64,000 nucleotides of DNA, taken from IMG/VR virus record IMGVR_UViG_3300028833_000077. One strand, given 5' to 3'. Below the pieces are notes generated by a model that made no database searches, was not told the origin of the DNA, and saw nothing but the letters and a program-made list of their open reading frames with translations. Shown in pieces: positions 1,868-63,058 of the stretch (its first letter is position 1; each line of letters starts with the position of its first letter). A program made the position numbers and the translations under genes. Origin of the DNA: a virus (lineage: Duplodnaviria; Caudoviricetes).

Positions 1868-3547
1868 ATGAGTACGACAACAAGTGACCTCTTGAACAGA
1901 GCCAATATAATCAAGAATGAGACTCTTGAGGGCAAGAACTCTGCTGTACGTGTGGGCAGTCTGTTTTGGGACATTATCTCAAAGATGGAAGGCAACACCA
2001 GCAAGCTCTCAACCCTTGAGGAACTCATCAACTCAGGTGGTTCAAGATACAGCAATGTGAGGGTGACTCCAGTGTATACGAATGGTGTCTTGATTGCTAC
2101 CATCAGGGTAGGTGTTCAGGACTATGCCATCTATGCACCAGGCAAGGGTGGCTCTGGTAGTGATTCTGATTCAGATGGCTATGATGACAGGGAACTCCGC
2201 AGGGAGATTGACTTGATTAAATCCAATCTTGACAATATCCTTGAGAGGGAGAAAGCAGGCATCAAGGATATGGTTGAAGAAATCCTTGCTGGCAAGAACT
2301 TCATCAGTGGCTGGCAGGCAGGATGGTATGAAACACTCAAGAGCTACCTTATCTCTGTAGGCGTCCTTGGAGCTGACGGAGTAAGCAAAGGCTGGGCATA
2401 CCTTGATACCAAATACAACGACCTTGAGGCAGCAGTTAATAGCCTCAGGAGAATCGGTGAGGACAATCAAGGTCTTTATGAGACTCTGCAGTCACAGTTG
2501 AATCTTTTCATCCAGAATGAATTTGGTGAATTGAGTACTGCTGTTGGAGAGCTTAAAACAAGATACGCATTGACTGCTGATGATAAGACTGTATTGAAGT
2601 GGTTGACTGCCCAGCTTAGGGTTCAGGCAGGTGCGAATGGCTCACTTGCACAGCTGTTTGCTACTGCTAGTGACAAGGCTCGTTTGCAGGATGCTTTGGC
2701 ACTTCTTGAGGCCAGAGTGGATGATATAGAAGGAAACTATGTGTCTACAGCTCGTCTTATTGCTCAAGTAAGGAATGAGATAGATGGTCGTATCAGTACT
2801 GGCGGTCTTATTACAACTGCTTCTCTTGATAGGGCAGTCACAACTCTCTTTGCTGAGAGTGGAGACAATACATCCAGTGCAAGGGCTGCAATAGACCTGA
2901 TAGTTGAGAATGGTATTTCCAGCATTGTGGAAAGGGCTGACATTATACAGGCTATAGCTAACAGGATTGTGATTGACGGCTCACAGATAGACATTACAGC
3001 TGACCAGATCAATGCTGCAATGGAAAGTCTTAGGGTTAAAGTATCGGACATCATTATTGGAGATGGTAAAAGACAGGGTTCTGACTATTATGACCGTATG
3101 TTAATACATACCTACAAGGAGCCAGGTAGTGATAAGATTCTTGGCATGGAGCTTCTGTTTGGTAATTTCCAAATAAACAATGCAGGAGATGTTACTATGT
3201 CTAAGCCCGGTCTTAGGTGCAGATTTAACTACTACTACTTGGATGCTCCCAAGATTGTTTCTAGCCAAATCATGCTTCCAACCCAGAACCTAAACGGTCC
3301 TTCCTATCTGGATTTCAATAAAGATAGTGTTATCAGGTGGTTTAATACTGTAGGAAATCCAGAGACAAATCAGACTGGAGACGAGTATGGCATTGATGCA
3401 AATGGCAACATGGGAACCAATGAGACTGATGGTGCTGTATTAACTGATAAGAGTACAGTAGGCAATAGTGCCAATGGTTATATTACCTTTGAGGGAGATA
3501 CCATTGTCATACATGGTAACCTCAAAATAAATGATAGAACCATATAA
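1868..3547 (+). CDS. Putative tail fibre/spike-type virion protein (coiled-coil middle, beta-rich C-terminus)
   Basis: N-terminal 'LLNRANIIKNET.EGKNSAVRVGSLF' resembles Bacteroidota phage structural proteins; helical middle; beta-rich end 'ITFEGDTIVIHGNLKIN'; lies in the tail module. Confidence 0.5.
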   Translation: MSTTTSDLLNRANIIKNETLEGKNSAVRVGSLFWDIISKMEGNTSKLSTLEELINSGGSRYSNVRVTPVYTNGVLIATIRVGVQDYAIYAPGKGGSGSDSDSDGYDDRELRREIDLIKSNLDNILEREKAGIKDMVEEILAGKNFISGWQAGWYETLKSYLISVGVLGADGVSKGWAYLDTKYNDLEAAVNSLRRIGEDNQGLYETLQSQLNLFIQNEFGELSTAVGELKTRYALTADDKTVLKWLTAQLRVQAGANGSLAQLFATASDKARLQDALALLEARVDDIEGNYVSTARLIAQVRNEIDGRISTGGLITTASLDRAVTTLFAESGDNTSSARAAIDLIVENGISSIVERADIIQAIANRIVIDGSQIDITADQINAAMESLRVKVSDIIIGDGKRQGSDYYDRMLIHTYKEPGSDKILGMELLFGNFQINNAGDVTMSKPGLRCRFNYYYLDAPKIVSSQIMLPTQNLNGPSYLDFNKDSVIRWFNTVGNPETNQTGDEYGIDANGNMGTNETDGAVLTDKSTVGNSANGYITFEGDTIVIHGNLKINDRTI

Positions 3548-13738: not shown

Positions 13739-13746
13739 TACCTTTG
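13739..13746 (+). promoter_or_regulatory. Bacteroidota -7 promoter element TACCTTTG for the cargo-protein operon
   Basis: Exact TAnnTTTG match, downstream of a terminator and 21 nt before the ATG at 13767. Confidence 0.7.
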
Positions 13747-13766: not shown

Positions 13767-14813
13767 ATGAAAGACGGTAGAGTACAGGTAGTTACCAAAT
13801 ACAATATGGCAGCCTTCCTCCCCAAGGAGGATGACTATGAGGAAAGTGTGTTCACTTCTCCAGTCAAGGAAGAGAGGCCTTCCCATGAGGGTAAGGTGAG
13901 GACAGTCAACAAGTTCAACAAGGCTGCCTTCATGCCGAAGGATGAGAACCTGTTTAAGTTTGGGGGTGGAGGTGACTTTTTCAAGCATCAGAACGGAGGA
14001 ACTTATGGAGGTACTTCCATGATGACGGCAGATAATACATTTAATGTACCCTTGCCGGGAGGCAGCACTTTTACTTTTAGTAGTGCAAATTATCAAAAGC
14101 CTGTATTGACAGACTCTTCTGGGTATACAAAGCAACTTGGCGGTGCAGGTGAAGTAATAAAGAGTACTCAAAATGCTCCATCATCAGGTTCCAATGGGTT
14201 CTTTGGTAAAGGAGGAGCAGGTACTGCAGCTGCTGGTGCATTATTGGGAGTGGCAAGCAGCATAGGACAGTCAGAGACCAATAAGAGGGGATTGTTTGAT
14301 GTAATGGATCCTGTACATCAGCTTGCAGGTGGAAGGGAATCTGCTGTAGGTAATGCCTTGGGAGATGCAGGTGTAGGAGTATTCCAAGCAGGTGTGTCTA
14401 CTGGTAATCCTTGGATTATGGCAGCAGGTGCTGGACTGAAGGTCATTGGAGGTCTTACTAATGCAGCATTTGGTATTAAAGAAGATAAGGAGAAGAAGGC
14501 TGCTGCTGATGCAAGCATAGCATCCAACCAGAACTTCATGTCCAATGCAGAATCATTTGATGACATCAAGGGACCTGCATCTGCCACTGCTACCGATGTG
14601 TATGAAGGAGGTTGGTTCTCTGGAGGTAAGGCAGACAGGAAGAATGCAGAACTTGCAAGGAGGATGGCCAATGCCTATTCATGGGCAGACAGGAGCATTC
14701 TGAATAATGTGCAGAACCTTCAGGATGACCAAGTTGAAAACTTCTTGAGGAACTACTCTGCATTCGGAGGATACCTCACAAGACCTAAGAGAAAAAGGAA
14801 AGTAAAAAGATAA
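13767..14813 (+). CDS. Putative virion cargo/ejection protein (Gly/Ala-rich hydrophobic segments)
   Basis: Gly/Ala-rich stretches such as 'TGNPWIMAAGAGLKVIGGLTNAAFG'; position after the muzzle gene as in crAss-like phages. Confidence 0.6.
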   Translation: MKDGRVQVVTKYNMAAFLPKEDDYEESVFTSPVKEERPSHEGKVRTVNKFNKAAFMPKDENLFKFGGGGDFFKHQNGGTYGGTSMMTADNTFNVPLPGGSTFTFSSANYQKPVLTDSSGYTKQLGGAGEVIKSTQNAPSSGSNGFFGKGGAGTAAAGALLGVASSIGQSETNKRGLFDVMDPVHQLAGGRESAVGNALGDAGVGVFQAGVSTGNPWIMAAGAGLKVIGGLTNAAFGIKEDKEKKAAADASIASNQNFMSNAESFDDIKGPASATATDVYEGGWFSGGKADRKNAELARRMANAYSWADRSILNNVQNLQDDQVENFLRNYSAFGGYLTRPKRKRKVKR

Positions 14814-26094: not shown

Positions 26095-26103
26095 TGTAAA
26101 AAT

Positions 26104-26136
26104 AAAGGGGAGGCCTAAATGACCTCCCTTATTTCT
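26104..26136. terminator. Probable bidirectional terminator at the convergence of the two transcription directions
   Basis: AAGGGGAGG-cctaaatga-CCTCCCTT hairpin with an A-rich 5' flank and T-rich 3' flank; overlaps the P63C stop codon. Confidence 0.55.
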
Positions 26137-26975
26137 TTCTCTCTATGATAGGCATTGTTGAAGAGTTCCTTGAACTGGTCTTTGCTTTTCGATGCTGCCA
26201 TCAAGGCTGTAACTCCTACAATCTGATTCTTCAAGTGCTGTCTTCCTACTTCTGGAGTAAGTGACTGGTGCAGTTTATGCTTCCAATTACCTCCTTCAGT
26301 CTTGCCTGTCTTCTCCTTAAGAGCTTCCAGAACACCTTCAGGCAGGGCCTTGTATACATATAGGTTGGTAAGCATTCCTACCAGCATGGGCTTGGTACTC
26401 TTTGTGGAGTCATAGTCCAGTCCCCATAGCCTGAACATTTCTTGATAGAAATCATTGCTGAAGGTCAACTGCCACTTGGCTACTTCATCAGAGACATAGG
26501 CTGCCAGTATCTTCTGAAGCTCAGTGCTCTCTCGCATTGCCTGATAGCCAGTAGCTTCGTCTACCAGAGCTGTTATGCCCACTCTGGCAAATGACCTCAT
26601 CAGTATTTCACATTGGTCAGCTACAATCATTTGTCTTTTAGTCAATTTGACTTCCCTTCTTGCTTCTAGGAGTAAGTCACATATATCTGCAAGTAAGTCT
26701 GCTTTATAGGCACTTATTCTTTTATCGCCATCATAACAGCTGATTGGAGAAAAATGGGCGCATCCTAAGTTGTTGGCAATGAATGGTTTAAGCCTGTCAT
26801 TAGATAGAAATCTATCAATTTTTGTGCCGGTCCTTTCATTTTCAGTAATTCGGAGTCCCATCTGCATTCCTCTACTAGACAATACTCTGGTACCGTCTTC
26901 AAGAACATAACAAGGAATGGTTGTTCCTGCAAGGTTCAGTTCACCCTTGCATTTTACTTGATTTGATTTACACAT
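26115..26975 (-). CDS. P63C-domain protein (phage antirepressor/Bro-associated family)
   Basis: 'GELNLAGTTIPCYVLEDGTRVLS', 'FARVGITALVDEATGYQ', 'W...F..DFYQEMFRLWG', 'KLHQ.LT.EVG..HL'. Confidence 0.85.
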   Translation of the reverse strand: MCKSNQVKCKGELNLAGTTIPCYVLEDGTRVLSSRGMQMGLRITENERTGTKIDRFLSNDRLKPFIANNLGCAHFSPISCYDGDKRISAYKADLLADICDLLLEARREVKLTKRQMIVADQCEILMRSFARVGITALVDEATGYQAMRESTELQKILAAYVSDEVAKWQLTFSNDFYQEMFRLWGLDYDSTKSTKPMLVGMLTNLYVYKALPEGVLEALKEKTGKTEGGNWKHKLHQSLTPEVGRQHLKNQIVGVTALMAASKSKDQFKELFNNAYHREKEIREVI

Positions 26976-27321
26976 ATTATTAGAATTTATTTATTGATTG
27001 GTATTTAATTATCAACAAGACATAGTACGTCCCTAAGAGAATCCTCTGGCTCATTATCCTGAAACTTCCACTGCCCGGTCAATATTCAGCTAACTCGTAG
27101 CTTTTCAGCGCTTGCCCCTAACCCCCGTTTACCCTGTACCTTTCATTTCAACATAGTTTGGTGGGGAACAGTTTTATATTCAGAAAGTTTGTGACCTATC
27201 GGGGCTTGAGCTTTCTATCTCAGGACTATGTGCTGTCCCTACAACCCGACTTCTGAGCCTCTATATATCCACTGGACCTTACTAGGCTGTTCATGGGACT
27301 ATGTCTCCCAAGGGTCTAAAG

Positions 27322-27464
27322 TAACTGGTATAAAAACCAGTAAACGAAAAAATTGCAGTCCTAATGTGACGAACAGACTGCAATTATTCCCATTTACTGG
27401 TATAGTTGTCAGGATTTCTCCTGTCAATTTCGGTATGTCTTTGCAGTTATCGTCACTTAACTAC
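27322..27464 (-). ncRNA. Putative structured leader RNA, copy 1 (two hairpins with complementary loops)
   Basis: 5' hairpin GUAGUUA-AGUGACGA-UAACUGC (27464-27443); long hairpin CCAGUAAAUGG...UUGCAGUC-UGUUCGUCACAUUAG-GACUGCAA...UUUACUGG + U run (27400-27337); homologous to 50367-50549. Confidence 0.7.
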
Positions 27465-27468
27465 GGTG

Positions 27469-27476
27469 CAAAGGTA
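27469..27476 (-). promoter_or_regulatory. Bacteroidota -7 promoter element TACCTTTG
   Basis: Exact match 4 nt upstream of leader RNA copy 1; context ATGTGTACCTTTG is shared with 50555-50562. Confidence 0.7.
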
Positions 27477-27564
27477 CACATTTATATTGAATTGATAGTC
27501 ATTTCGTTAGTTAATAATCATTAAAGTAATGTTCTAAGTCATATTAATATATAGTGGCTGGTAT

Positions 27565-27598
27565 AAAATAAAGAGGACACACTTAATAGTATGCCCTC
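27565..27598 (-). terminator. Intrinsic terminator after the 1497-aa gene
   Basis: Minus strand GAGGGCATAC-tattaa-GTGTGTCCTC followed by TTTATTTT. Confidence 0.7.
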
Positions 27599-27633
27599 CA
27601 ATTCACATTAACACAACTTAAAGCTGTATGGGT

Positions 27634-30600
27634 TTAGTCATCTTTTTCAAACATTGAGAACATGGAGTCATCAAAGTCGATGGCTTTATATATCTGAGGT
27701 AGATATGGAGTTGCTTGGAATGCATCTCTTGAGTACTCTGACCATCCTTGGTACCGCCCTGTCTGCACCTCATCGAATATATTATATATTTCTACCATTT
27801 TTCTCATCCTATCAAACGTGGATACCGCTGCAGCAGGCTGCTGCATAAGAGTGATCAGATTCTTGAAAAACATTGGGCCTGGTACTGATGCCCCTACCTC
27901 AAGGTACATTCTTCTTATTTGATAAAGAGCCATCTTATTGAGCCAGCTCCTGTCATAGTCCTTAACCTTTCCGCCAAGTCTTACAAGGGTAAGCAACATC
28001 ATAAAGAGGGATACCTCTGCACATGCTCTTCTGATGTTTGCCAGTTCATGGGGTCCTAGCTTTCCTTCAATATAAGCCTTGTTGAATTCTGCCTGTCCCT
28101 TAATAATGTCCTTAGAGAGCTGTTGCATGAACTTGTATACAGTTACATAATATCCTTCCCTCCACTGTTCAAGGTCAGCATCATAGTGGGCTCCTGCAAA
28201 TCTTCTCATATAATGGGCAGGCATCCACTGACGGAACTGCATGATAAGTCTGCCCCAGGCTTTCTTATGTATTGCACCTTTGTCATTAACTCCAAAGGCA
28301 CCATTCAAAGAATCATTGACTTTACGGATAACTTTCTTCTTTTTGAATATGTATCTTTGGGTAGCATTGTCACTAAGATTCTTCAACGCTACTGTCTCCT
28401 TCTTAATCCTGCCATTTTCATCTCTTACAGGCTTGCCGTAGTTTGGGTTCTTGCTGAATACCCGCCCTTTATCGTCCTTGTAAGTACCTCCTGAAAGGTC
28501 TATCACATCCTTTTCATAGGCAAGATTCTCCTCTAACTCCAATTTATATATGCCTCTATCATCTTTTACCACCTTAAGAGCATCGTAAAGACTGATTTTT
28601 TCTCCTGCCTTATGCCCATTGGTGTCTTTCGTATACACAAGTTTGGTTGCATTCAGGATGGCCAGCATGGTCTGGCAATGGAGGATATGCTCTCCTGCAT
28701 TCATTCCAATGAACCCTAGAGCATTGTTACCTAGTATTCTTGATAATATATGCTGACTGTGGTGGGTATCCCTCAGACTGTCATAGTAGTCTCCCATAGG
28801 ATCGAACATTTGTATAAGCAGGCTGAGTTTGTTTTTCTTGACGGGTTCTGCTATTTCAGCCATACATCCTGGAAGCAAAGCACCGTATTGCCTTACAGCC
28901 TTTGCATAATCTTGAGCACCGAAGTACTCCCCGCCTGCCGCTTCTATCCACTGTTGTATCTTACCTACAGCTACATTGGATAGAGTAGAGAATAGGTTGA
29001 GGCCAAGCCCAAGAAGGCCTGTATAGTCTTTAATGGCATCAAGGGTCTTGGCATAGTCAATATTGACACCGAAGGCCTCCAGTCCTCCCATATCCTCCTT
29101 CCTTTCTTCATAGATGACTGAATCCACGTAGTCATCTAGTCTGTCTATGGTATTTGTTCCATTGCCTGCTCTTTCCACAAATCCCTTATATATTCTGTCA
29201 AATGCTTGGAATCTAGAATATAGTGGGCCATTTCCCTTATTTTCCCAGAAAGTTCTCTGATCCCTTACATAATCCCTTCCTACTTCAATAATGTCTACTA
29301 CCTCATTCATCTTCTCATAGTTGACAGCCATGGCACTATATGCAGTCATGCATCCTGAGAAGTCGGTTGACAGCATCTTCATATCCTTAAGTCTACGAGT
29401 GTAATAGATGGGCAGTTTCTGTATCCTATGATGGGCGAAGTCTGTATCCACTAAATAGAAGTTCTCCGAAGAGATTCTGCTCAATATTTCTTTGGCACAG
29501 TCTGATGCTACACTACTGAATTTCTCATTACTACTCTTGGCATTCCTCTTGAACAGCTTAATAACCCTTCTGATGTCTCTTGGGTTGATGACAGAATGTA
29601 TATCTTCATCAGTGGCATCTGCCAATGTATTGATAATCTCAACTGCGGCCTTCTGCTCGTTTTCCTCCCTAAGTATAATCTCTTCTATAGTCTTTTGGAA
29701 GTCTTCATTTGTTCCGAATCCTATATCATCAGGCCTTCTACTGAATTTACGAACAAACTGTTCCTTGGTGGCCTTTGCTATGTTCCCAGTGGAATTATCC
29801 AATATACCCTCCACAAAATCCTTGCTGATGTAGATGGCCCTGTATATAGCCTGCCCTCTATGGGGAATCTTACACATCATTTCCTTTTTCAGCTCTATCA
29901 TGGCATTATAGTAGTCCCTTTGTGCAGGAGCAAGCCTTTCTATACGATCAGCATATTTGGAGTATACTGCAGGGTTTGGAACCATTTCATATACAGCCTC
30001 TGGGTATTTCCTCATTGTCTTGCTTAAGTCATTCTTATGGGAGTTGTAATAATCCTCTACTTCCTTATTGATAAAGATTGGTATAAGTCTCTTGTTCCCT
30101 TCCTTATCTATTTTATTCTTCCACTTTTGCAGAGCGGCCCTGTACTTCTCTCCTGTTATTCCTGCATCTCTCAGTTCCTGCTGTTTTGCATACAGTTCTT
30201 GGTTATATGTCTCCCAGTCATAGATACTGATGATTCTTCCTGTGGGAACTTCCTCACTGTCTTTTTCCAACATAAAGTCTGAAGAGAATCCTGCCCTTCT
30301 CAGCTTGTCGTCCTCCATAGAAATCCTTGCATTGATGTCAATCATCTCCATATCCCTGTGATACTGTTGGTTTTTGACAATGGCATCAAACAATGTCAAT
30401 AGTGAGTCGTCTGCATCACTGAGAGCAGACAGCCATCTGTCAACAAGGTTGATATCCTTTTCAGCATGCTCTAGAATCTCTTTAAGAGACATGACTTCAT
30501 TTCTCCTTGAGCCTATTCCACGAACAGTATCCTCTGCATAGACAGTCCTTGATACAGCATAAAGAATATTAAAAGCAGAATCATGGGCGAATTTATTTAG

Positions 30601-41578: not shown

Positions 41579-41586
41579 CAAAGGTA
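41579..41586 (-). promoter_or_regulatory. Bacteroidota -7 promoter element TACCTTTG for the RNAP gene
   Basis: Exact match 20 nt upstream of the RNAP ATG, downstream of a terminator. Confidence 0.7.
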
Positions 41587-49207: not shown

Positions 49208-50023
49208 TCAAGTCTTCTTGGTCTTCCTTCTAGTCTTCCTCTTAGGTGGAGCTGTTTCTTCCTGAGAAGCCTCTTCTACAGGAGGGGCAATCATCTTGGC
49301 ATACTCAGTCCTTGCCATCCTGTCACACTCTTCATTGTACCTATCTCCTGCATGGCCTCTTACCCATTTCAGTGTAGCTTTGATACCTTTGGCTCTGCAT
49401 ATTGACCTATATCTGTCAACTATGTCAAGGTTCTCAGATGCTTCCCATTTCCCACTGAGCACATTGATGCTGTACTGTGAGTCTGAATGAATAACCACTT
49501 CAGCCCCATTGGGAAGGGAGTTCACTACACTGACGATGGCAAGCAGTTCCATCCTGTTTGTTGTGGTGTGGAGGAATCCCTTTGATGTCCTCTTGTACTC
49601 ATTGCCATCCTCACCTATTATTATATAGGCAGAACCCCCAGGCTTGTCAGGATGGAACCAGTTGCCACTGCCATCAGTCCATGCAATGAACTTCTTCTGA
49701 GTGCTCTTGTTGGATGCAATCAGATTGTTCTGCATCACCTTGAAGGCATTTATATCCAGCTTGTCCAAGTACCCTGAAGTGCTTGCATTCTTGTGTGGCT
49801 CATACCACCATCTTACCATGACGGTGTAGTAATCCACAAAGACCTCCATCTTAGAAGGCACACCTTTCGCCTTGCCCCAAACCTTAGTGAAGATGTCTCT
49901 ATTGTAATCATCATCCCTGTAATACTTGAAGCCTTCTGAAGTCAGATAGTCTCTAAGTTCTCCATTTGTCATGTTTGTTATTGCTGTTTTCAATATTGTC
50001 AGTTTACTACTGCTCTCTTCCAT
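49208..50023 (-). CDS. rnhA: Ribonuclease HI with ~110-aa N-terminal extension
   Basis: 'WTDGS', 'TTNRMELLA', 'SDSQY', 'WVRGHAGDRYNEECD' give the complete DEDD catalytic set. Confidence 0.9.
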   Translation of the reverse strand: MEESSSKLTILKTAITNMTNGELRDYLTSEGFKYYRDDDYNRDIFTKVWGKAKGVPSKMEVFVDYYTVMVRWWYEPHKNASTSGYLDKLDINAFKVMQNNLIASNKSTQKKFIAWTDGSGNWFHPDKPGGSAYIIIGEDGNEYKRTSKGFLHTTTNRMELLAIVSVVNSLPNGAEVVIHSDSQYSINVLSGKWEASENLDIVDRYRSICRAKGIKATLKWVRGHAGDRYNEECDRMARTEYAKMIAPPVEEASQEETAPPKRKTRRKTKKT

Positions 50024-50366: not shown

Positions 50367-50549
50367 TAACTGGTAATGCGAAGCATGTTTAGTAATCGAG
50401 GGTGGTTATCTGAATAAAGGAAAAATCCAGTAAACAGAAAAATTGCAACCCTATAGTAGCTCACAGGTTGCAATTCTCTCCATTTACTGGTATATGAGAA
50501 AAAATCCTTCTACCCAATTATGTCGAAGCAATCAGAGCTACTTGATTAC
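50367..50549 (-). ncRNA. Putative structured leader RNA, copy 2 (two hairpins with complementary loops)
   Basis: 5' hairpin GUAAUCA-AGUAGCUC-UGAUUGC (50549-50528); long hairpin CCAGUAAAUGG...UUGCAACC-UGUGAGCUACUAUAG-GGUUGCAA...UUUACUGG + U-rich tail (50490-50427). Confidence 0.7.
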
Positions 50550-50554
50550 GTGGA

Positions 50555-50562
50555 CAAAGGTA
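50555..50562 (-). promoter_or_regulatory. Bacteroidota -7 promoter element TACCTTTG
   Basis: Exact match just upstream of leader RNA copy 2. Confidence 0.7.
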
Positions 50563-50630
50563 CACATTATAGGTTATATAGTCAAGGACCTAAGAACGAT
50601 ACTAAGGTCAGAGTAGGATTACCCTTAGAT

Positions 50631-53948: not shown

Positions 53949-54752
53949 TTAATGAATCCAATGTGTCCCGATTTCTGCTTCTGCGGGGATGGGTAGCTTT
54001 GTGCATACTAGAGCAGCAGCAGATTCCATGCATTCCTTTAGTTTAACAGGCACAATGTTATGTAGTGCTTCAGGGTAAATGATGTCACTTTCATCATGGA
54101 CCAGTGCAGCAAACTCCACTTTTCCAAAATACCCACTGTCTACAACCCAATTGAAGAAGTTTGTCATAGCTATCTTCAGGATGACACAGCCAGAGCCTTG
54201 TGTTGGAGCATTAAGTGCCATACGGTCCCACTTTGATGCTGCCCTGAAGTGCATGGACACCTCTTGTGCTATAGCATCACCAGTTCCTTTATGTCTTAGT
54301 CTATACTCTTCCCAAAATTCTTGAGTGAAGGACTTCTGCCTTTCAAGCCATTCCTTGTGATCCCACCAGTACATCTTATGACCACTGTACTTGCACATCA
54401 GGATATATCCATTCTGTCTGACAAATTCAGAGCCTTTCTTCTTGAAGTCTGCAATTCCCTTAAATCTGTTATAATAGGCATCCACATAATGTTGGGCTTC
54501 TTCCTCGGATATTGCAAGCTGTGTTGCAAGTCCAAAGGCAGATCCACCGAACTGAATCAAAAACTCAGGACTCTTGGAACGCTTCCTCAGCTCAGGATAC
54601 TTCTTCTTGATTTCCTTGGTAGTAATACCCGGCTCCATCTGATCTGCAAAGAATGTCTGTGCCATCAAAGAATGAATGTCCCCACTGCCATGCAGGAACT
54701 CTTCTATCATATGGGGCTCATTGTAAATGTCAGCTCCTAGGCGACTTTCTAG
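53949..54752 (-). CDS. polA: DNA polymerase family A, exon 2
   Basis: Begins LESRLGA (second half of motif A); 'GDIHS', motif B 'RKRSKSPEF..QFG', 'RMALNAPTQGSG', motif C 'LVHDE'. Confidence 0.9.
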   Translation of the reverse strand, partial: LESRLGADIYNEPHMIEEFLHGSGDIHSLMAQTFFADQMEPGITTKEIKKKYPELRKRSKSPEFLIQFGGSAFGLATQLAISEEEAQHYVDAYYNRFKGIADFKKKGSEFVRQNGYILMCKYSGHKMYWWDHKEWLERQKSFTQEFWEEYRLRHKGTGDAIAQEVSMHFRAASKWDRMALNAPTQGSGCVILKIAMTNFFNWVVDSGYFGKVEFAALVHDESDIIYPEALHNIVPVKLKECMESAAALVCTKLPIPAEAEIGTHWIH

Positions 54753-54780
54753 CACCCCGATTCAGGGGTGGACTATCCCT

Positions 54781-55779
54781 TTACCATGCACACATAGGTG
54801 TGTTTAGGTAGCGCATTATAGTCTCTGCACCTTCCATAATATACTGACCGTTCTTTTTGTTTATAAGATGACCAGCACTATTATAGCTTGGCTCAGGGTT
54901 AGGGGAAGCAACCCCTTCCTTGAATTTCGCGCATTTTTCTCTAAGCATTTCTGCAAAGAGGTGCCCTCTTTCATATTTACGCATCAAGTAAATATGAGCT
55001 TCATTGTACATTAAATTGGCAACTCTAACAACATCTACTGTTTTTTGTACTTCTAAATAGTACAAGTAGTTATTGTTTGGTTTCTTTCTTTTACTAAGAG
55101 TGCTTTCTATGCCTAAGGAATGCAGGTAATCCTTTATCTTTTGTAAAAAGATCAAGGACTTTCCACATATTCCCCACTGCATGGTATTACCCTTATTAGT
55201 AGAGTGCCAATACCCATCTCCATCGAATATCCCTCGCAGGATGTGCGGTGTTAATGGGGTATAAATATCACATTCATAAGATTTATTATGGAAATTCCCA
55301 TGTTCTTCAAGCCAGGCAGCAATTAAATCACTCCTGACAGAAGTACTGAACATGTAAGTGTTACACTTCTTTTGAAGCACTTTTGAAACCTTATTTCTAG
55401 GACAAGCGAAGTCCCTGAATTTCTCTACCATCTCCTTATCCTTTAACGACAGTGAGATTGCCACAGAATTAGTTTCTTTTCTGTGACATACACAACCATC
55501 AGTCAAAAGGAGCCCAAGAAAGTATTCAGACTTCTCATCTCCAATTTTAAAAGGGTTCTCTTTAACTCTTGTATTAACTTCTTTAGGAGTTCTTGGAGCT
55601 ATCCCATAACGTAACAACACTCTTCTGATGCTAGTGTTGTAAGTGTTCCATTTCTTAGCAATCTCTACAGTGTTTAATCCTGCTTGATAATCACTAATAA
55701 TACTTTGTTCCTTTTCAATACTAAATCTCATATTATCCTGATTTTTGTATTGCAAATTTAAGCAGAGTAATCGGAACAT
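54781..55779 (-). CDS. Intron-encoded LAGLIDADG homing endonuclease with N-terminal HTH (likely start MRFSIE, 55731)
   Basis: 'YFLGLLLTDGCV' and 'ILRGIFDGDG' double motifs. Confidence 0.9.
   Translation of the reverse strand: MFRLLCLNLQYKNQDNMRFSIEKEQSIISDYQAGLNTVEIAKKWNTYNTSIRRVLLRYGIAPRTPKEVNTRVKENPFKIGDEKSEYFLGLLLTDGCVCHRKETNSVAISLSLKDKEMVEKFRDFACPRNKVSKVLQKKCNTYMFSTSVRSDLIAAWLEEHGNFHNKSYECDIYTPLTPHILRGIFDGDGYWHSTNKGNTMQWGICGKSLIFLQKIKDYLHSLGIESTLSKRKKPNNNYLYYLEVQKTVDVVRVANLMYNEAHIYLMRKYERGHLFAEMLREKCAKFKEGVASPNPEPSYNSAGHLINKKNGQYIMEGAETIMRYLNTPMCAW
55753..55760 (-). promoter_or_regulatory. Intron-internal TAAATTTG promoter element for the endonuclease
   Basis: TAnnTTTG match about 22 nt upstream of the MRFSIE start. 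Confidence 0.5.
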
Positions 55780-55825
55780 ACTATCTTATAAATATTACAC
55801 TTATACTAATTAATCATTTTACTTA

Positions 55826-57076
55826 AGCACTGAAGTCGCAGCTGCACCATTCATAGCCTTTAGGAGCTGTAAAGCATCCTCTGGTCTGCTCATCTGCAGG
55901 AAGCTGCTGACAATTCGGATAGGTACAGTCCTTAGGCTTTACCTTATTTACCTTGGCAAGGTCCTCATTAGGCTGCTGTGAGCCACAGGACATGCGGCCA
56001 CTCGCTGCACCCAGCTGCTTGTATACAGTATGTATCCTATCTGTCTTTGGATTGATGGCATTCAGATGGCCTTGTCCAAAGGATGAGCACACCTTAAAGT
56101 GTTCTTGATAGTCAAAGTACAGTTTGAGGAACTCATCACATATTCCCTTCTGTGCCTTCAGTAGCTTCTCAAGTACAGAATCCTTGTCCTCACCAGTCTT
56201 CTTGTCCTTTGTGGCAGTATTGAATCCTAGTATCTTCGCTATCTTAACTACTTGCATGGAACTAGACCAGTTTACCTTCACCTTTGGAGTCAAGTCAAAC
56301 CCACTGAACAAATCTCCCTGAGTGTCTATGTAGACAAATTGCTTCAGGTCATTACGTGTGACCACAAAGTCATTGAGAAGCTTTTCTGCTTGAGCAAGCT
56401 TTTCCTGATCAGACTTCATCTTATCCATCCACTTGGCTCTGTCCAGATGGATACCGCACCATTCAAGGTAGGATATAGCAGGGATGAAGTCACACTCTAT
56501 CTTGGCTGCCTTCATAAGGTCCTGTTTCTTGAGGTCTTCTACTTGAGACCACATGATTCTTTCAAGATAGGTGACATCTCCAGCTGCATACATGATGACT
56601 TGGGTGTCAAGTCCTCTCCACTGAATTTCCCCTCGGACAGTCTTGTCAATGTTGATATGTAATCTTCTGTCAGCAATGGCATTCAATGCATAAGAGATTT
56701 GCCCTGCAGGCCACCCAAGATGGAGCAGCTGCTCCACAATCATAGTATCATATACTCTTCTGATGATGATACCATAGTTGAAGAAGAACTGCAAGTCAAA
56801 CTTTGCATTCTGTAGTACACATAGTGCATTCTCTAGTATGTGCTTGTACTTCTTGATGTCTACAGTAGTACAGTCCACTACTATCCTGGCATCTGCCTTG
56901 TCATTTCCAAATTGTACACAGAGAAAGTCACATAAATGTGCATCACGGCCTGTAGTCTCACTGTCCAGCTGGATAATCTTCCAATTCTCCATTATCTTGA
57001 GGGACTCCTCAACAGAGATAATTTTGTAATCATCCCTGTCAAAGAGTTCCTGTTGATGTGTTACCAGATAGACCAT
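55826..57076 (-). CDS. polA: DNA polymerase family A, exon 1 (3'-5' exonuclease and start of polymerase domain)
   Basis: Exo motifs 'LDSETTG', 'QNAKFDL', 'YAAGD'; 'SGRMSC...PNCQQLP....RGCF...CSCDFSA'. Spliced product is 684 aa. Confidence 0.9.
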
Positions 57077-61909: not shown

Positions 61910-63058
61910 CAATTTTTGTTATCCATGAGGCTTTTTATCCTCATGTTCTGCAGGTACTTTAACTCTCCCTGCAGTTCAGCATATATTTTGCTCCTATTGA
62001 TAGGAGACGGATACTCTTGGGTGGATTATATTTATTCACCACCTATGCGTTACACTACTCAGCAGCCTTACGCAATCTGCTGAGTTAGCTCGGTATTACT
62101 ACTATCATAGAATCTCATCACCTGTTTTACTTTATTCATTTTTCTAGTTAAGAAGAAGGTTGCATCCTTATACAACATTTCCATTATGACATAAGCTTGA
62201 AATTGGCTATAGTATCCCAAGACAAAATGCCCTCCATTATCATAGAGGTGACTTGTAAATTTTGGAAGCCATGTCCTTATGTCTTTAAGGATTTGAGCAG
62301 TCCCATTTGCCCAGCATATGGAAATCTTCCTATAAGTGCCATTGTCTAGTCTGTAAGCCTGTATACTTCCATCTCCGTCAGTATACCCTCTTAAAAAGTG
62401 GGCTTTCATGTTTTCAGGAATTAATTGGAAAATGTTTGACTCTGCATGCGTCTTGTCAATACAGAACCCAAGTTCCTGAAGCCTTTTATACATGATCGGG
62501 GATTTCCACCTAATCGAATGCTGTGGTTTTCTTTTGAAATTCTGGTTGTTGGAAGATTCAATGGGGTTATTTGGGCAGATGTATTTCTGTACCATCTCCA
62601 AAATCTCCACATCATCTTCTTGCAGCCTCATTCCAATTCTACCATCAGAGGCCAGATAGCCATCTGCATACAGGTAGCCTAGCAAATATGCCTTTATCTC
62701 AGAATCTATGGAATCAAAAAAGTGATCATTGGGTCTGTGCTTTCTCAAGTCAGCCCTATTGCCCATCTTTTTCCTAATCCAATAGTCCCAAGTACCTCTT
62801 GGAATGTCGTACTTCTTTTTAACTTCGGAATACCTCATTTTGTTTTCAAGGCACTCTTTTTCATAAATCTCTTTCAACTGTTCGCTTGTGTATTTCATCT
62901 TGCAACAAATTAACTTGTTGCGAAGGTATGAATTCTACTCCAAGTGAACAGCTTAGTAATAAAGGTGTTAAGGGTTTCTAAATAGGTTGTTAAATAGCTT
63001 CACCGATTTTACCCGTTATTTTCCAAGGGGATTACTCCCCAAGTGGGCTACACTGCTA
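61910..63058 (-). mobile_element. Group I intron (1149 nt) in the rIIB-like gene with LAGLIDADG ORF
   Basis: 5' splice site GGGU|UAGCAGUGUAGCCC forms P1 with the U.G pair; IGS GUGUA pairs with exon 2 UACAC (P10); terminal G at 61910. Core: AAAUCGGUGAA / AAUACCGAGC (P4), GUAACGCAUA / UAUAUGCUG (P7). Splicing restores the frame (993 nt, 330 aa). Confidence 0.9.
62068..62898 (-). CDS. Intron-encoded LAGLIDADG homing endonuclease
   Basis: 'AYLLGYLYADG' and 'HFLRGYTDGDGS'. Confidence 0.9.
   Translation of the reverse strand: MKYTSEQLKEIYEKECLENKMRYSEVKKKYDIPRGTWDYWIRKKMGNRADLRKHRPNDHFFDSIDSEIKAYLLGYLYADGYLASDGRIGMRLQEDDVEILEMVQKYICPNNPIESSNNQNFKRKPQHSIRWKSPIMYKRLQELGFCIDKTHAESNIFQLIPENMKAHFLRGYTDGDGSIQAYRLDNGTYRKISICWANGTAQILKDIRTWLPKFTSHLYDNGGHFVLGYYSQFQAYVIMEMLYKDATFFLTRKMNKVKQVMRFYDSSNTELTQQIA

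Follow-up and report, generated by a model that had tools for sequence, protein, structure and literature searches.

What is encoded in the gap that separates a 1497-aa gene from the P63C gene of a rumen-type crAss-like phage? The question was raised by a 64,000-nt stretch of this virus (Duplodnaviria; Caudoviricetes; IMG/VR record IMGVR_UViG_3300028833_000077), called the window below. At 658 nt, the gap ranks among the two longest stretches without genes in a densely packed window. Gene regulation in crAss-like phages is, to our knowledge, poorly understood, and none of their RNA regulators has been catalogued.

On the 5' side of the P63C gene lies an RNA leader of ~140 bases with two hairpins, A and B, whose mutual pairing is kept by matched mutations in 14 phage sequences, which argues for a real, uncatalogued RNA switch. 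Our favoured interpretation, to which we assign a probability of roughly 0.55, is that the leader is a cis-acting two-state terminator/antiterminator attenuator of a unit transcribed by the host RNA polymerase, nucleated by kissing between two loops. On this sequence evidence, it probably decides whether transcription continues into P63C.

Organization of the Leader

The elements of the leader follow one another on the minus strand: a -7 promoter box of the Bacteroidota type, hairpin A, the motif GACAUA, a hairpin with a GAAA loop (hairpin M), the 25-bp hairpin B with its U run, and the segment ACCAGU (Table 1). The stem of hairpin A has 7 bp, one of them a conserved U.G pair, and closes on a loop of 8 nt. 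Every coordinate and sequence that an earlier, sequence-only reading had given for the minus-strand promoter, hairpins A and B, GACAUA, the UCGUCAC of loop B, the U run and the downstream segment proved correct. The same reading had pointed to a second copy of like architecture some 23 kb away, and copy 2 does lie 23,090 nt from copy 1 with the same layout.

The 137-nt RNA core folds with a predicted energy of -46.6 kcal/mol (z = -6.4 relative to shuffled sequences). Hairpin B and its U run resemble an intrinsic terminator, and the tail is like those of the two terminators called by the scanner in this unit. A simple terminator scanner makes no call at hairpin B because its loop exceeds the scanner's limit of 8 nt. 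G.U pairs occur throughout, which shows that the structure belongs to the minus-strand RNA. A protein-coding reading of the plus-strand ORF at 27228-27524 was rejected: the ORF is not conserved, the open stretches range from 33 to 84 codons, and the indels do not come in threes.

Table 1. Features of the P63C transcription unit and position of the second leader copy in the window
Feature	Position	Strand	Basis or detail
Terminator-like hairpin with U-rich tail, closing the upstream 1497-aa gene	27572..27599	-	Terminator scan, sequence
-7 promoter box TACCTTTG (TAnnTTTG), Bacteroidota type	27469..27476	-	Sequence
Hairpin A	27443..27464	-	Fold; GUAGUUA 27464-27458, loop AGUGACGA 27457-27450, UAACUGC 27449-27443
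Kissing segment GUGACGA in loop A	27456-27450	-	
GACAUA, conserved single-stranded motif 3' of hairpin A	27434..27439	-	Present in 8 of 13 aligned sequences
Hairpin M, CAGGA-GAAA-UCCUG	27410..27423	-	Fold and alignments
Hairpin B	27337..27400	-	14-bp lower stem, 1-nt bulge, 11-bp apex stem, 13-nt loop
Apex stem of hairpin B	27385-27375 with 27361-27351	-	
Loop B, 13 nt	27374-27362	-	UCGUCAC at 27372-27366, complement of loop A
U run directly 3' of hairpin B	27332..27336	-	Sequence
Small alternative hairpin	27324..27341	-	ACUGGU (3' foot of B, 27341-27336) with ACCAGU (27329-27324), the U run forming its loop
UACCAGUUA downstream of hairpin B	27330-27322	-	Sequence
Rest of the 5' UTR, G-rich, ~330 nt, apparently structured	26976..27323	-	Comparison with L097
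P63C-domain gene, 286 aa, sole gene of its unit	26115..26975	-	Pfam PF10546, E = 3e-27
Terminator-like hairpin overlapping the 3' end of the P63C gene	26128-26108	-	Terminator scan
Paralogous copy 2, heading the RNase H operon	50418..50566	-	Layout as in copy 1; loops GUAGCUC/GAGCUAC

Relatives of the Leader

Covariance models were built, and relatives were gathered with DNA patterns, through homologues of the 1497-aa gene, and from contigs encoding P63C or HTH homologues. The outcome is a set of 14 distinct sequences, 12 of them retrieved in addition to the window pair: the two copies in the window, L097, L245, L284, L286, L296, L297, L298, L309, L322, L324, L325 and the diverged L323. Thirteen well-aligning sequences make up the main alignment.

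Loose patterns (ACCAGTAAA...TTTACTGG and a 15-mer) gave about 240 loci, of which L097 alone was real; a 20-base pattern found L097 only, and a metagenome scan added L245. A scan of genome contigs returned chance matches only, and blastn in distant mode with the whole intergenic region found no match among 50,697 phage records. In G002, a complete relative of 116 kb whose version of the 1497-aa protein is 54% identical, there is no copy of the leader and the homologous gene ends in a plain terminator. The sequence-only reading had been unable to assign the element to a known family, and this still holds: no Rfam family was found anywhere in the window at the gathering score, and with E values up to 10 the two intergenic regions gave only chance matches of the microRNA type. 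Literature searches did not turn up a comparable leader or small RNA described for a crAss-like phage. Genes for tRNA or tmRNA are absent from the window.

Covariation in the Hairpins and between the Loops

Between copy 1 and copy 2 all 39 pairs are kept and eight are changed on both sides, four of these falling among the seven loop-loop pairs. The loops of the second copy are thus different and again complementary, as had been claimed, with 7-nt pairing in either copy. Across the 13 sequences, 95.4% of cells are paired in the fold with hairpins A and B (state T), and 28 of the 39 pairs are changed on both sides. None of 500 shuffles matched the observed value on four of five measures, and two of the 500 did so on the remaining one, the number of further pair types. 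When the partner columns were slid, T-state pairing fell to 27-42%.

Each hairpin contributes to this signal. Cells are paired at 96.7% in hairpin A, where three pairs have double-sided changes among the 13 sequences, bearing out the compensatory changes that had been noted in its stem, and at 96.4% and 97.2% in the lower stem and the apex of hairpin B. The stem of hairpin M covaries (CAGGA/UCCUG, CGGAG/CUCCG, GGAA/UUCC, GGAGG/CCUCC, GGGA/UCCC and AAAGA/UCUUU in the alignments) around a loop that is GAAA in most members. Directly after the B stem, UUUU(U) is found in 14 of 14 sequences.

Homologues had been named as the place to look for loop-loop covariation, and in the 13 sequences the loop-loop helix has double-sided changes at six of its seven pairs. 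Loops A and B are complementary over 7 nt in both window copies and in the 12 other sequences, in ~10 distinct loop pairs. The loop A segments are GUGACGA, GUGACGC, GUAGCUC, UUGAGCC, AUAGCCC, GUGGAGU, GUGGCUC, GUGAGAC(C), GUGAGAGC and GUGGCGG, each with an exact partner in loop B; L323 forms 7 bp that include one G.U pair. Cognate loops share 7-8 contiguous Watson-Crick pairs, against 2-6 for non-cognate ones. The loops are the most diverse of the paired positions, with 3-4 pair types per loop pair compared with 1-2 in the stems. Copies 1 and 2 are orthogonal: their loops cross-pair over 2-3 nt, at -9 to -11 kcal/mol compared with -20 to -25 kcal/mol for the cognate combinations.

Promoter and Transcription Unit

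The box TACCTTTG occurs nine times in the window, where 2.3 occurrences are expected, and, as several copies lie just ahead of long ORFs, probably marks the strong host-type promoters of the phage. TAYYTTTG is kept in 13 of the 14 leader sequences, the diverged L323 having TAACTTCG. From 26100 to 27640 on the minus strand, the leader box is the only TANNTTTG, with no further such box between leader and P63C. The plus strand has no TANNTTTG from 27300 to 27500, so that no promoter box for a countertranscript was found there, and sigma-70-like matches are no commoner than in shuffled sequences. The start of the leader transcript was placed ~5 nt 3' of the -7 box, at the foot of hairpin A, a position that we assume from Bacteroides promoters.

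Since a terminator-like hairpin closes the upstream gene, the leader promoter starts a new transcription unit, in which terminator, promoter box, leader, gene and terminator follow one another. Here, as at 13 other loci, the leader lies between the promoter and the first gene, on the same strand. The distance to that gene varies: 350-400 nt separate the leader from the next ORF in the window, and in L297, L298, L309, L322 and L323 the first start codon comes 0-45 nt past the U run, leaving no room for another promoter. Given these short distances and the lack of another TANNTTTG box, the downstream genes appear to be reachable only by reading through hairpin B; this is our main reason for preferring a leader to a free-standing small-RNA gene. 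The sequence-only reading had offered a cis-acting attenuator as one explanation. The promoter-proximal architecture supports it, as does the fact that the box is the sole one of the Bacteroidota type found for the P63C unit; the attenuator function itself is a prediction from sequence.

The exact TACCTTTG sites are at 3484, 8740, 13739, 38923 and 49384 on the plus strand and at 27469, 41579, 44967 and 50555 on the minus strand. Several copies lie just upstream of long ORFs, among them those at 13739, before the ORF at 13767, and at 41586, before the gene for a 3142-aa protein. Some 40-60 nt before the -7 box there is a direct repeat, ACTTTAAC-N4-ACTTTAAC, in L286 (2320-2360), L296, L298, L284, L097 and L297; the repeat, which may be a transcription-factor binding site, is degenerate in the window (27510-27532).

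An Alternative Helix between Hairpin A and the Apex of Hairpin B

The complementarity goes beyond the loops. In sequence, hairpin A is antisense to the B apex over its whole length, through the loop and both stem arms. The 5' arm of A with the 3' arm of the B apex has 98.7% of cells paired; between the 3' arm of A and the 5' arm of the apex, the core pairing is present in nearly all cells. Over the whole A-B apex helix pairing amounts to 92.6%, and sliding the partner columns lowers it to 25-48%. Where the fourth pair of stem A is G-C (copy 1, L097 and L284 in a 10-row alignment, and also L324), a matching change is found in the B apex. The stems of L323 are very different (ACAAG/CUUGU) yet match its own B apex (UAAG/CUUG), and L325 has a single A.C mismatch in the cross helix.

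Two mutually exclusive folds result: hairpins A and B (state T), or a long-range A-B apex helix of ~20 bp (state AT). From topology we argue that the lower stem of B cannot close while the AT helix exists, since that helix abuts the lower B strands without a linker on the 3' side. Folds of the growing transcript were calculated with ViennaRNA, ignoring the energy of a true kissing complex. For copy 1, AT is the lowest-energy fold at transcript lengths of about 90 to 120 nt. In these calculations, again without kissing energy, AT is lowest in 12 of 13 sequences until the B apex has been completed, and with the polymerase on the U run and 12 nt hidden it is still lowest in nine of 13; once hairpin B is complete, T wins in 12 of 13. 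The energies thus cross over inside the termination window, which fits a switch that is decided kinetically.

The stem A/B apex cross-complementarity, which is likely to represent the antiterminator helix according to this modelling, was not part of the sequence-only reading, and neither were the AT folding path, the cassette exchange and the split module with its orthogonal copies that the sequences suggest (see below). Some points could weaken the AT model. The energy of the kissing loops, ignored by the nearest-neighbour model, could stabilize T instead of leading to AT, and the 14-bp lower stem might terminate transcription despite an engaged apex. The cross-complementarity of the stems also follows in part from the likeness of stem A to the apex stem of B, and could be the relic of a duplication.

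Sequences Downstream of Hairpin B

An alternative pairing of the downstream segment with the 3' ACUGG strand of hairpin B had been suggested earlier, and it covaries. The closing pair of ACUGG-N/N'-CCAGU is U-A in the window, C-G in L097, L296, L297 and L309, and G-C in L286; RNAalifold run on the window with L097 gave the same U-A to C-G change. L322 and L323, in which the start codon comes immediately afterwards, lack the small hairpin. Judged from the sequence, this pairing would make sense only in a read-through RNA, where the foot of B would stay open.

The ~330-nt domain that follows in the window (26976-27323; L097, 6348-6757) is 78% identical between the two, compared with 67-70% in the flanking gene. 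It has blocks of 100% identity, invariant over up to 37 nt, and RNAalifold predicts nine compensatory pairs and a long-range closing helix. The domain has no match in Rfam, and a scan for its invariant block found L097 only. It is absent in L297, L298, L309 and L322-L325; being missing from most members, it is an optional insert outside the core element. The notion that it is a decayed HTH gene was rejected, as tblastn finds nothing.

Runs of five or six G (G5-G6) occur downstream of the core in both window copies. Between leader and first start codon, a conserved motif (A)CAGGATAAC is found in L309 (10458-10492, minus strand, as a tandem pair), L297 (1048-1062) and L298 (733-745); the window reads CAGGATAAT at ~27046-27058.

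Gene Context and Exchange of the Element

The sequence-only reading had tied the element to the P63C gene. P63C does lie downstream of copy 1, but the link is really to a module, HTH - RNase H - P63C. An operon of just this order follows the element in L309 and L325; in L323 the element heads HTH - RNase H - helicase, and in L097 it lies upstream of RNase H; in L284, L286, L296 and L298 P63C is directly downstream. The phage of the window has a split module, copy 1 leading into P63C and copy 2 into RNase H and the genes behind it, and it is this division into two units that accounts for the two paralogues.

Sequence comparisons indicate that the element is swapped as a cassette, bounded on its left by the transcription start. 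L286 and L296 are 98-100% identical on both sides and 50-70% identical across the ~200 nt that cover the element. Upstream and element identities are, respectively, 100 and 62% for L286/L296, 83 and 55% for L097/L297, and 46 and 83% for copy 1/L097. The same loop pair also occurs on different stem backgrounds, in L097 and L322 and again in L286 and L325.

The P63C gene has a hypervariable mosaic segment of three types (window 26630-26880, codons about 33-115; L286, 3098-3350), in which L286 and L296 have 54-66% nucleotide identity, compared with about 95% in the rest of the gene. A proposal that RNA type tracks this hypervariable region (aa 33-115) was rejected: the three protein types do not follow the RNA types.

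The RNase H ORF behind copy 2 (49208-50023, minus strand) encodes 271 aa with the domain starting at residue 110, against lengths of 166-191 aa among its relatives. No family matches the first ~100 residues, and the start may have been called too far upstream. The window also carries a family A DNA polymerase (53949-57076, minus strand) in two ORFs, one with the exonuclease and N-terminal part (55823-57076) and one with the C-terminal part (53949-54755). A LAGLIDADG endonuclease ORF (54781-55779) lies between them, suggesting an insertion of the intron or intein type; a second LAGLIDADG ORF is at 62068-62898.

A Model for the Switch

In the model that we favour, state T would form with hairpins A and M and the full 25-bp hairpin B, and B with its U run would terminate transcription and free an RNA of ~130 nt. 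In state AT, hairpin A would open and pair along its entire length with the B apex: its 5' arm with the 3' arm of the apex, loop A with loop B, and its 3' arm with the 5' arm of the apex. The kissing contact of 7-8 bp would nucleate this helix, which would block closure of the lower stem, so that the polymerase would continue into P63C or, in the relatives, into HTH - RNase H - P63C. In the read-through RNA, the downstream ACCAGU would capture the freed 3' foot of B. We infer termination at B, its prevention by the AT helix and a choice between the two states that would be set by kinetics or by a factor. A pure cis switch does not by itself explain the extreme variability of the loops.

Other Explanations Considered

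Loop diversity, orthogonality and cassette exchange resemble the behaviour of a specificity determinant, and for this reason a trans-acting, immunity- or incompatibility-like role is a possibility to be weighed, although we consider it unlikely. The released short RNA would bind hairpin A or the B apex of nascent leaders of the same specificity and would thereby block or force the AT helix, setting the level of HTH - RNase H - P63C, in the manner of the P4 CI RNA or of plasmid copy-control RNAs, except that the sense transcript would carry both partners. Such a role would fit the ~10 specificities among 14 sequences at what are the most diverse positions, the orthogonality of the two copies in one genome, the swapping of the element as a cassette with the same loop pair on different stems, and the classification of a relative, G003, as a provirus by IMG/VR. 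In pT181 attenuators, moreover, orthogonality is set jointly by changes in the loop and the upper stem (PMC3753616). Against a trans RNA, loops that kiss within one molecule would be masked from a partner in trans, there is no third target site, and the diversity could be explained by recombination together with a need for orthogonal paralogues. That the element is instead a stand-alone RNA of ~130 nt, with a kissing loop, a GAAA tetraloop and a job of its own such as protein binding, appears to us distinctly unlikely. It does form a complete unit of promoter, 5' hairpin, strong 3' hairpin and U run, three covarying hairpins and a tertiary contact give it a well-defined fold, and in the window the next ORF is 350-400 nt away. 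The downstream gene would then have to be expressed through leakage or from an unrecognized promoter, for which the 0-45 nt between U run and ORF in L322, L323, L297, L298 and L309 leave no room, and both the cross-complementarity of the stems and the covarying downstream hairpin are sensible only for a read-through RNA.

We give less weight still to a processing, stability or translation element, in which hairpin B would be a site of the RNase III type or a 5'-UTR stabilizer and the folds would set mRNA half-life or access to the start codon. A perfect 25-bp duplex has the length that RNase III needs, and in L323 and L322 the AUG lies 0-20 nt past the foot of B, which would cover the region where ribosomes land; but the U run that follows the stem in every sequence points to termination, and the AUG in the window is 350 nt away. 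Least credible, and very improbable in our estimate, is an element acting at the level of DNA, with A and the B apex as inverted repeats, serving for instance a recombinase, a DNA-binding protein or an origin, and gene conversion as the source of the matched changes. The two are indeed imperfect inverted repeats with a matched asymmetric centre, as in recombinase sites, the unit adjoins RNase H and replication genes, and G runs are present in the downstream domains. The G.U pairs in the stems, the cross helix and the kissing helix of L323 would, however, be A-C mismatches on the other strand; the loops differ in size (8 compared with 13 nt) and the extra bases of loop B are conserved, so the repeats have not been homogenized; and the lower stem of B and hairpin M, neither of which has an inverted partner, covary as well.

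Comparison with Known Systems

The two-state attenuator proposed here shares parts with several characterized systems. P4 is controlled by premature termination, and complementary segments within one leader covary between heteroimmune relatives (PMC4825925). Like the P4 CI and P1/P7 C4 RNAs (RF01695), the present leader is a phage leader RNA on the transcript of the genes that it would control, with short complementary segments that covary and a context of antirepressor-like or replication genes. It differs in having no match to the RF01695 model, in possessing only two complementary sites, both of them hairpin loops, in a complementarity that extends into both stems, and in its Bacteroidota host. 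No loop-like 7-mer (with at most one mismatch) recurs consistently within 900 nt downstream at 10 loci, in the way of P4 seqA/seqC or P1 a2/b2. The C4/CI affinity put forward in the sequence-only reading was therefore abandoned as a matter of membership, there being neither a model match in Rfam nor a further copy of a loop sequence near the downstream gene to serve as target site; the analogy is functional only.

In attenuators of the pT181 type, the terminator is selected, and specificity determined, by a loop-loop contact together with the upper stem (PMC3753616). In the pT181, pIP501 and pAMbeta1 attenuators a 5' hairpin loop is met by a complementary loop, the kiss spreads to the upper stem, and a terminator fold competes with a non-terminator fold; the leader has the sequence potential for a similar course. 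Their partner is a countertranscript from the opposite strand, whereas that of the leader is the terminator apex on the same sense RNA. Membership in this type was rejected, as the TANNTTTG and sigma-70-like scans gave no visible countertranscript promoter.

The cobalamin riboswitch (RF00174) likewise has an intramolecular kissing loop, L5-L13, that joins an upstream domain to a loop of the expression platform and decides expression. The leader differs in having no RF00174 match and no evident conserved ligand pocket, and the free variation of its loop sequences argues against a shared small-molecule site. In the lambdoid PR' - 6S RNA - tR' arrangement and in IsrK, as we propose for the leader, a promoter-proximal terminator gives a short RNA by default, with the genes behind it expressed by read-through (PMC4825925); in Gifsy-1, the short form of IsrK acts in trans on the read-through form (PMC4825925). 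Those systems depend on translational activation or on an antiterminator protein (Q, AntQ), whereas here the alternative fold lies inside the leader. The leader is set apart by carrying both partners on one sense transcript, with the tip of the putative terminator as one of the two.

Implications for Crass-like Phages

The leader is a concrete, testable switch placed before a conserved regulator/RNase H/P63C module. Its design, a putative antiterminator hairpin that is antisense to the terminator tip and would be nucleated by a kissing loop, is unusual. With ~10 mutually non-complementary loop pairs on one scaffold, the family offers a natural means to ask how RNA-RNA specificity depends on the identity of loops and stems, and the series is a possible source of orthogonal transcription regulators for Bacteroidota.

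A bolder reading, which we regard as rather unlikely, is that of a specificity system made of RNA only. The terminated leader would serve as a 'self-antisense' immunity RNA that recognizes nascent leaders of its own type by the code in loop and upper stem and switches the HTH - RNase H - P63C module, with its role in replication or anti-repression, off or on, and the swapping of cassettes would insulate related crAss-like phages, and the paralogues in the window, from one another. If the short RNA does act in trans, the finding would bear on phage persistence, the exclusion of relatives and the maintenance of lysogeny. Were the immunity reading true, no RNA-based determinant of immunity or incompatibility would have been described in Crassvirales before this leader, and its relatives would form a natural set of ~10 orthogonal kissing-loop attenuators.
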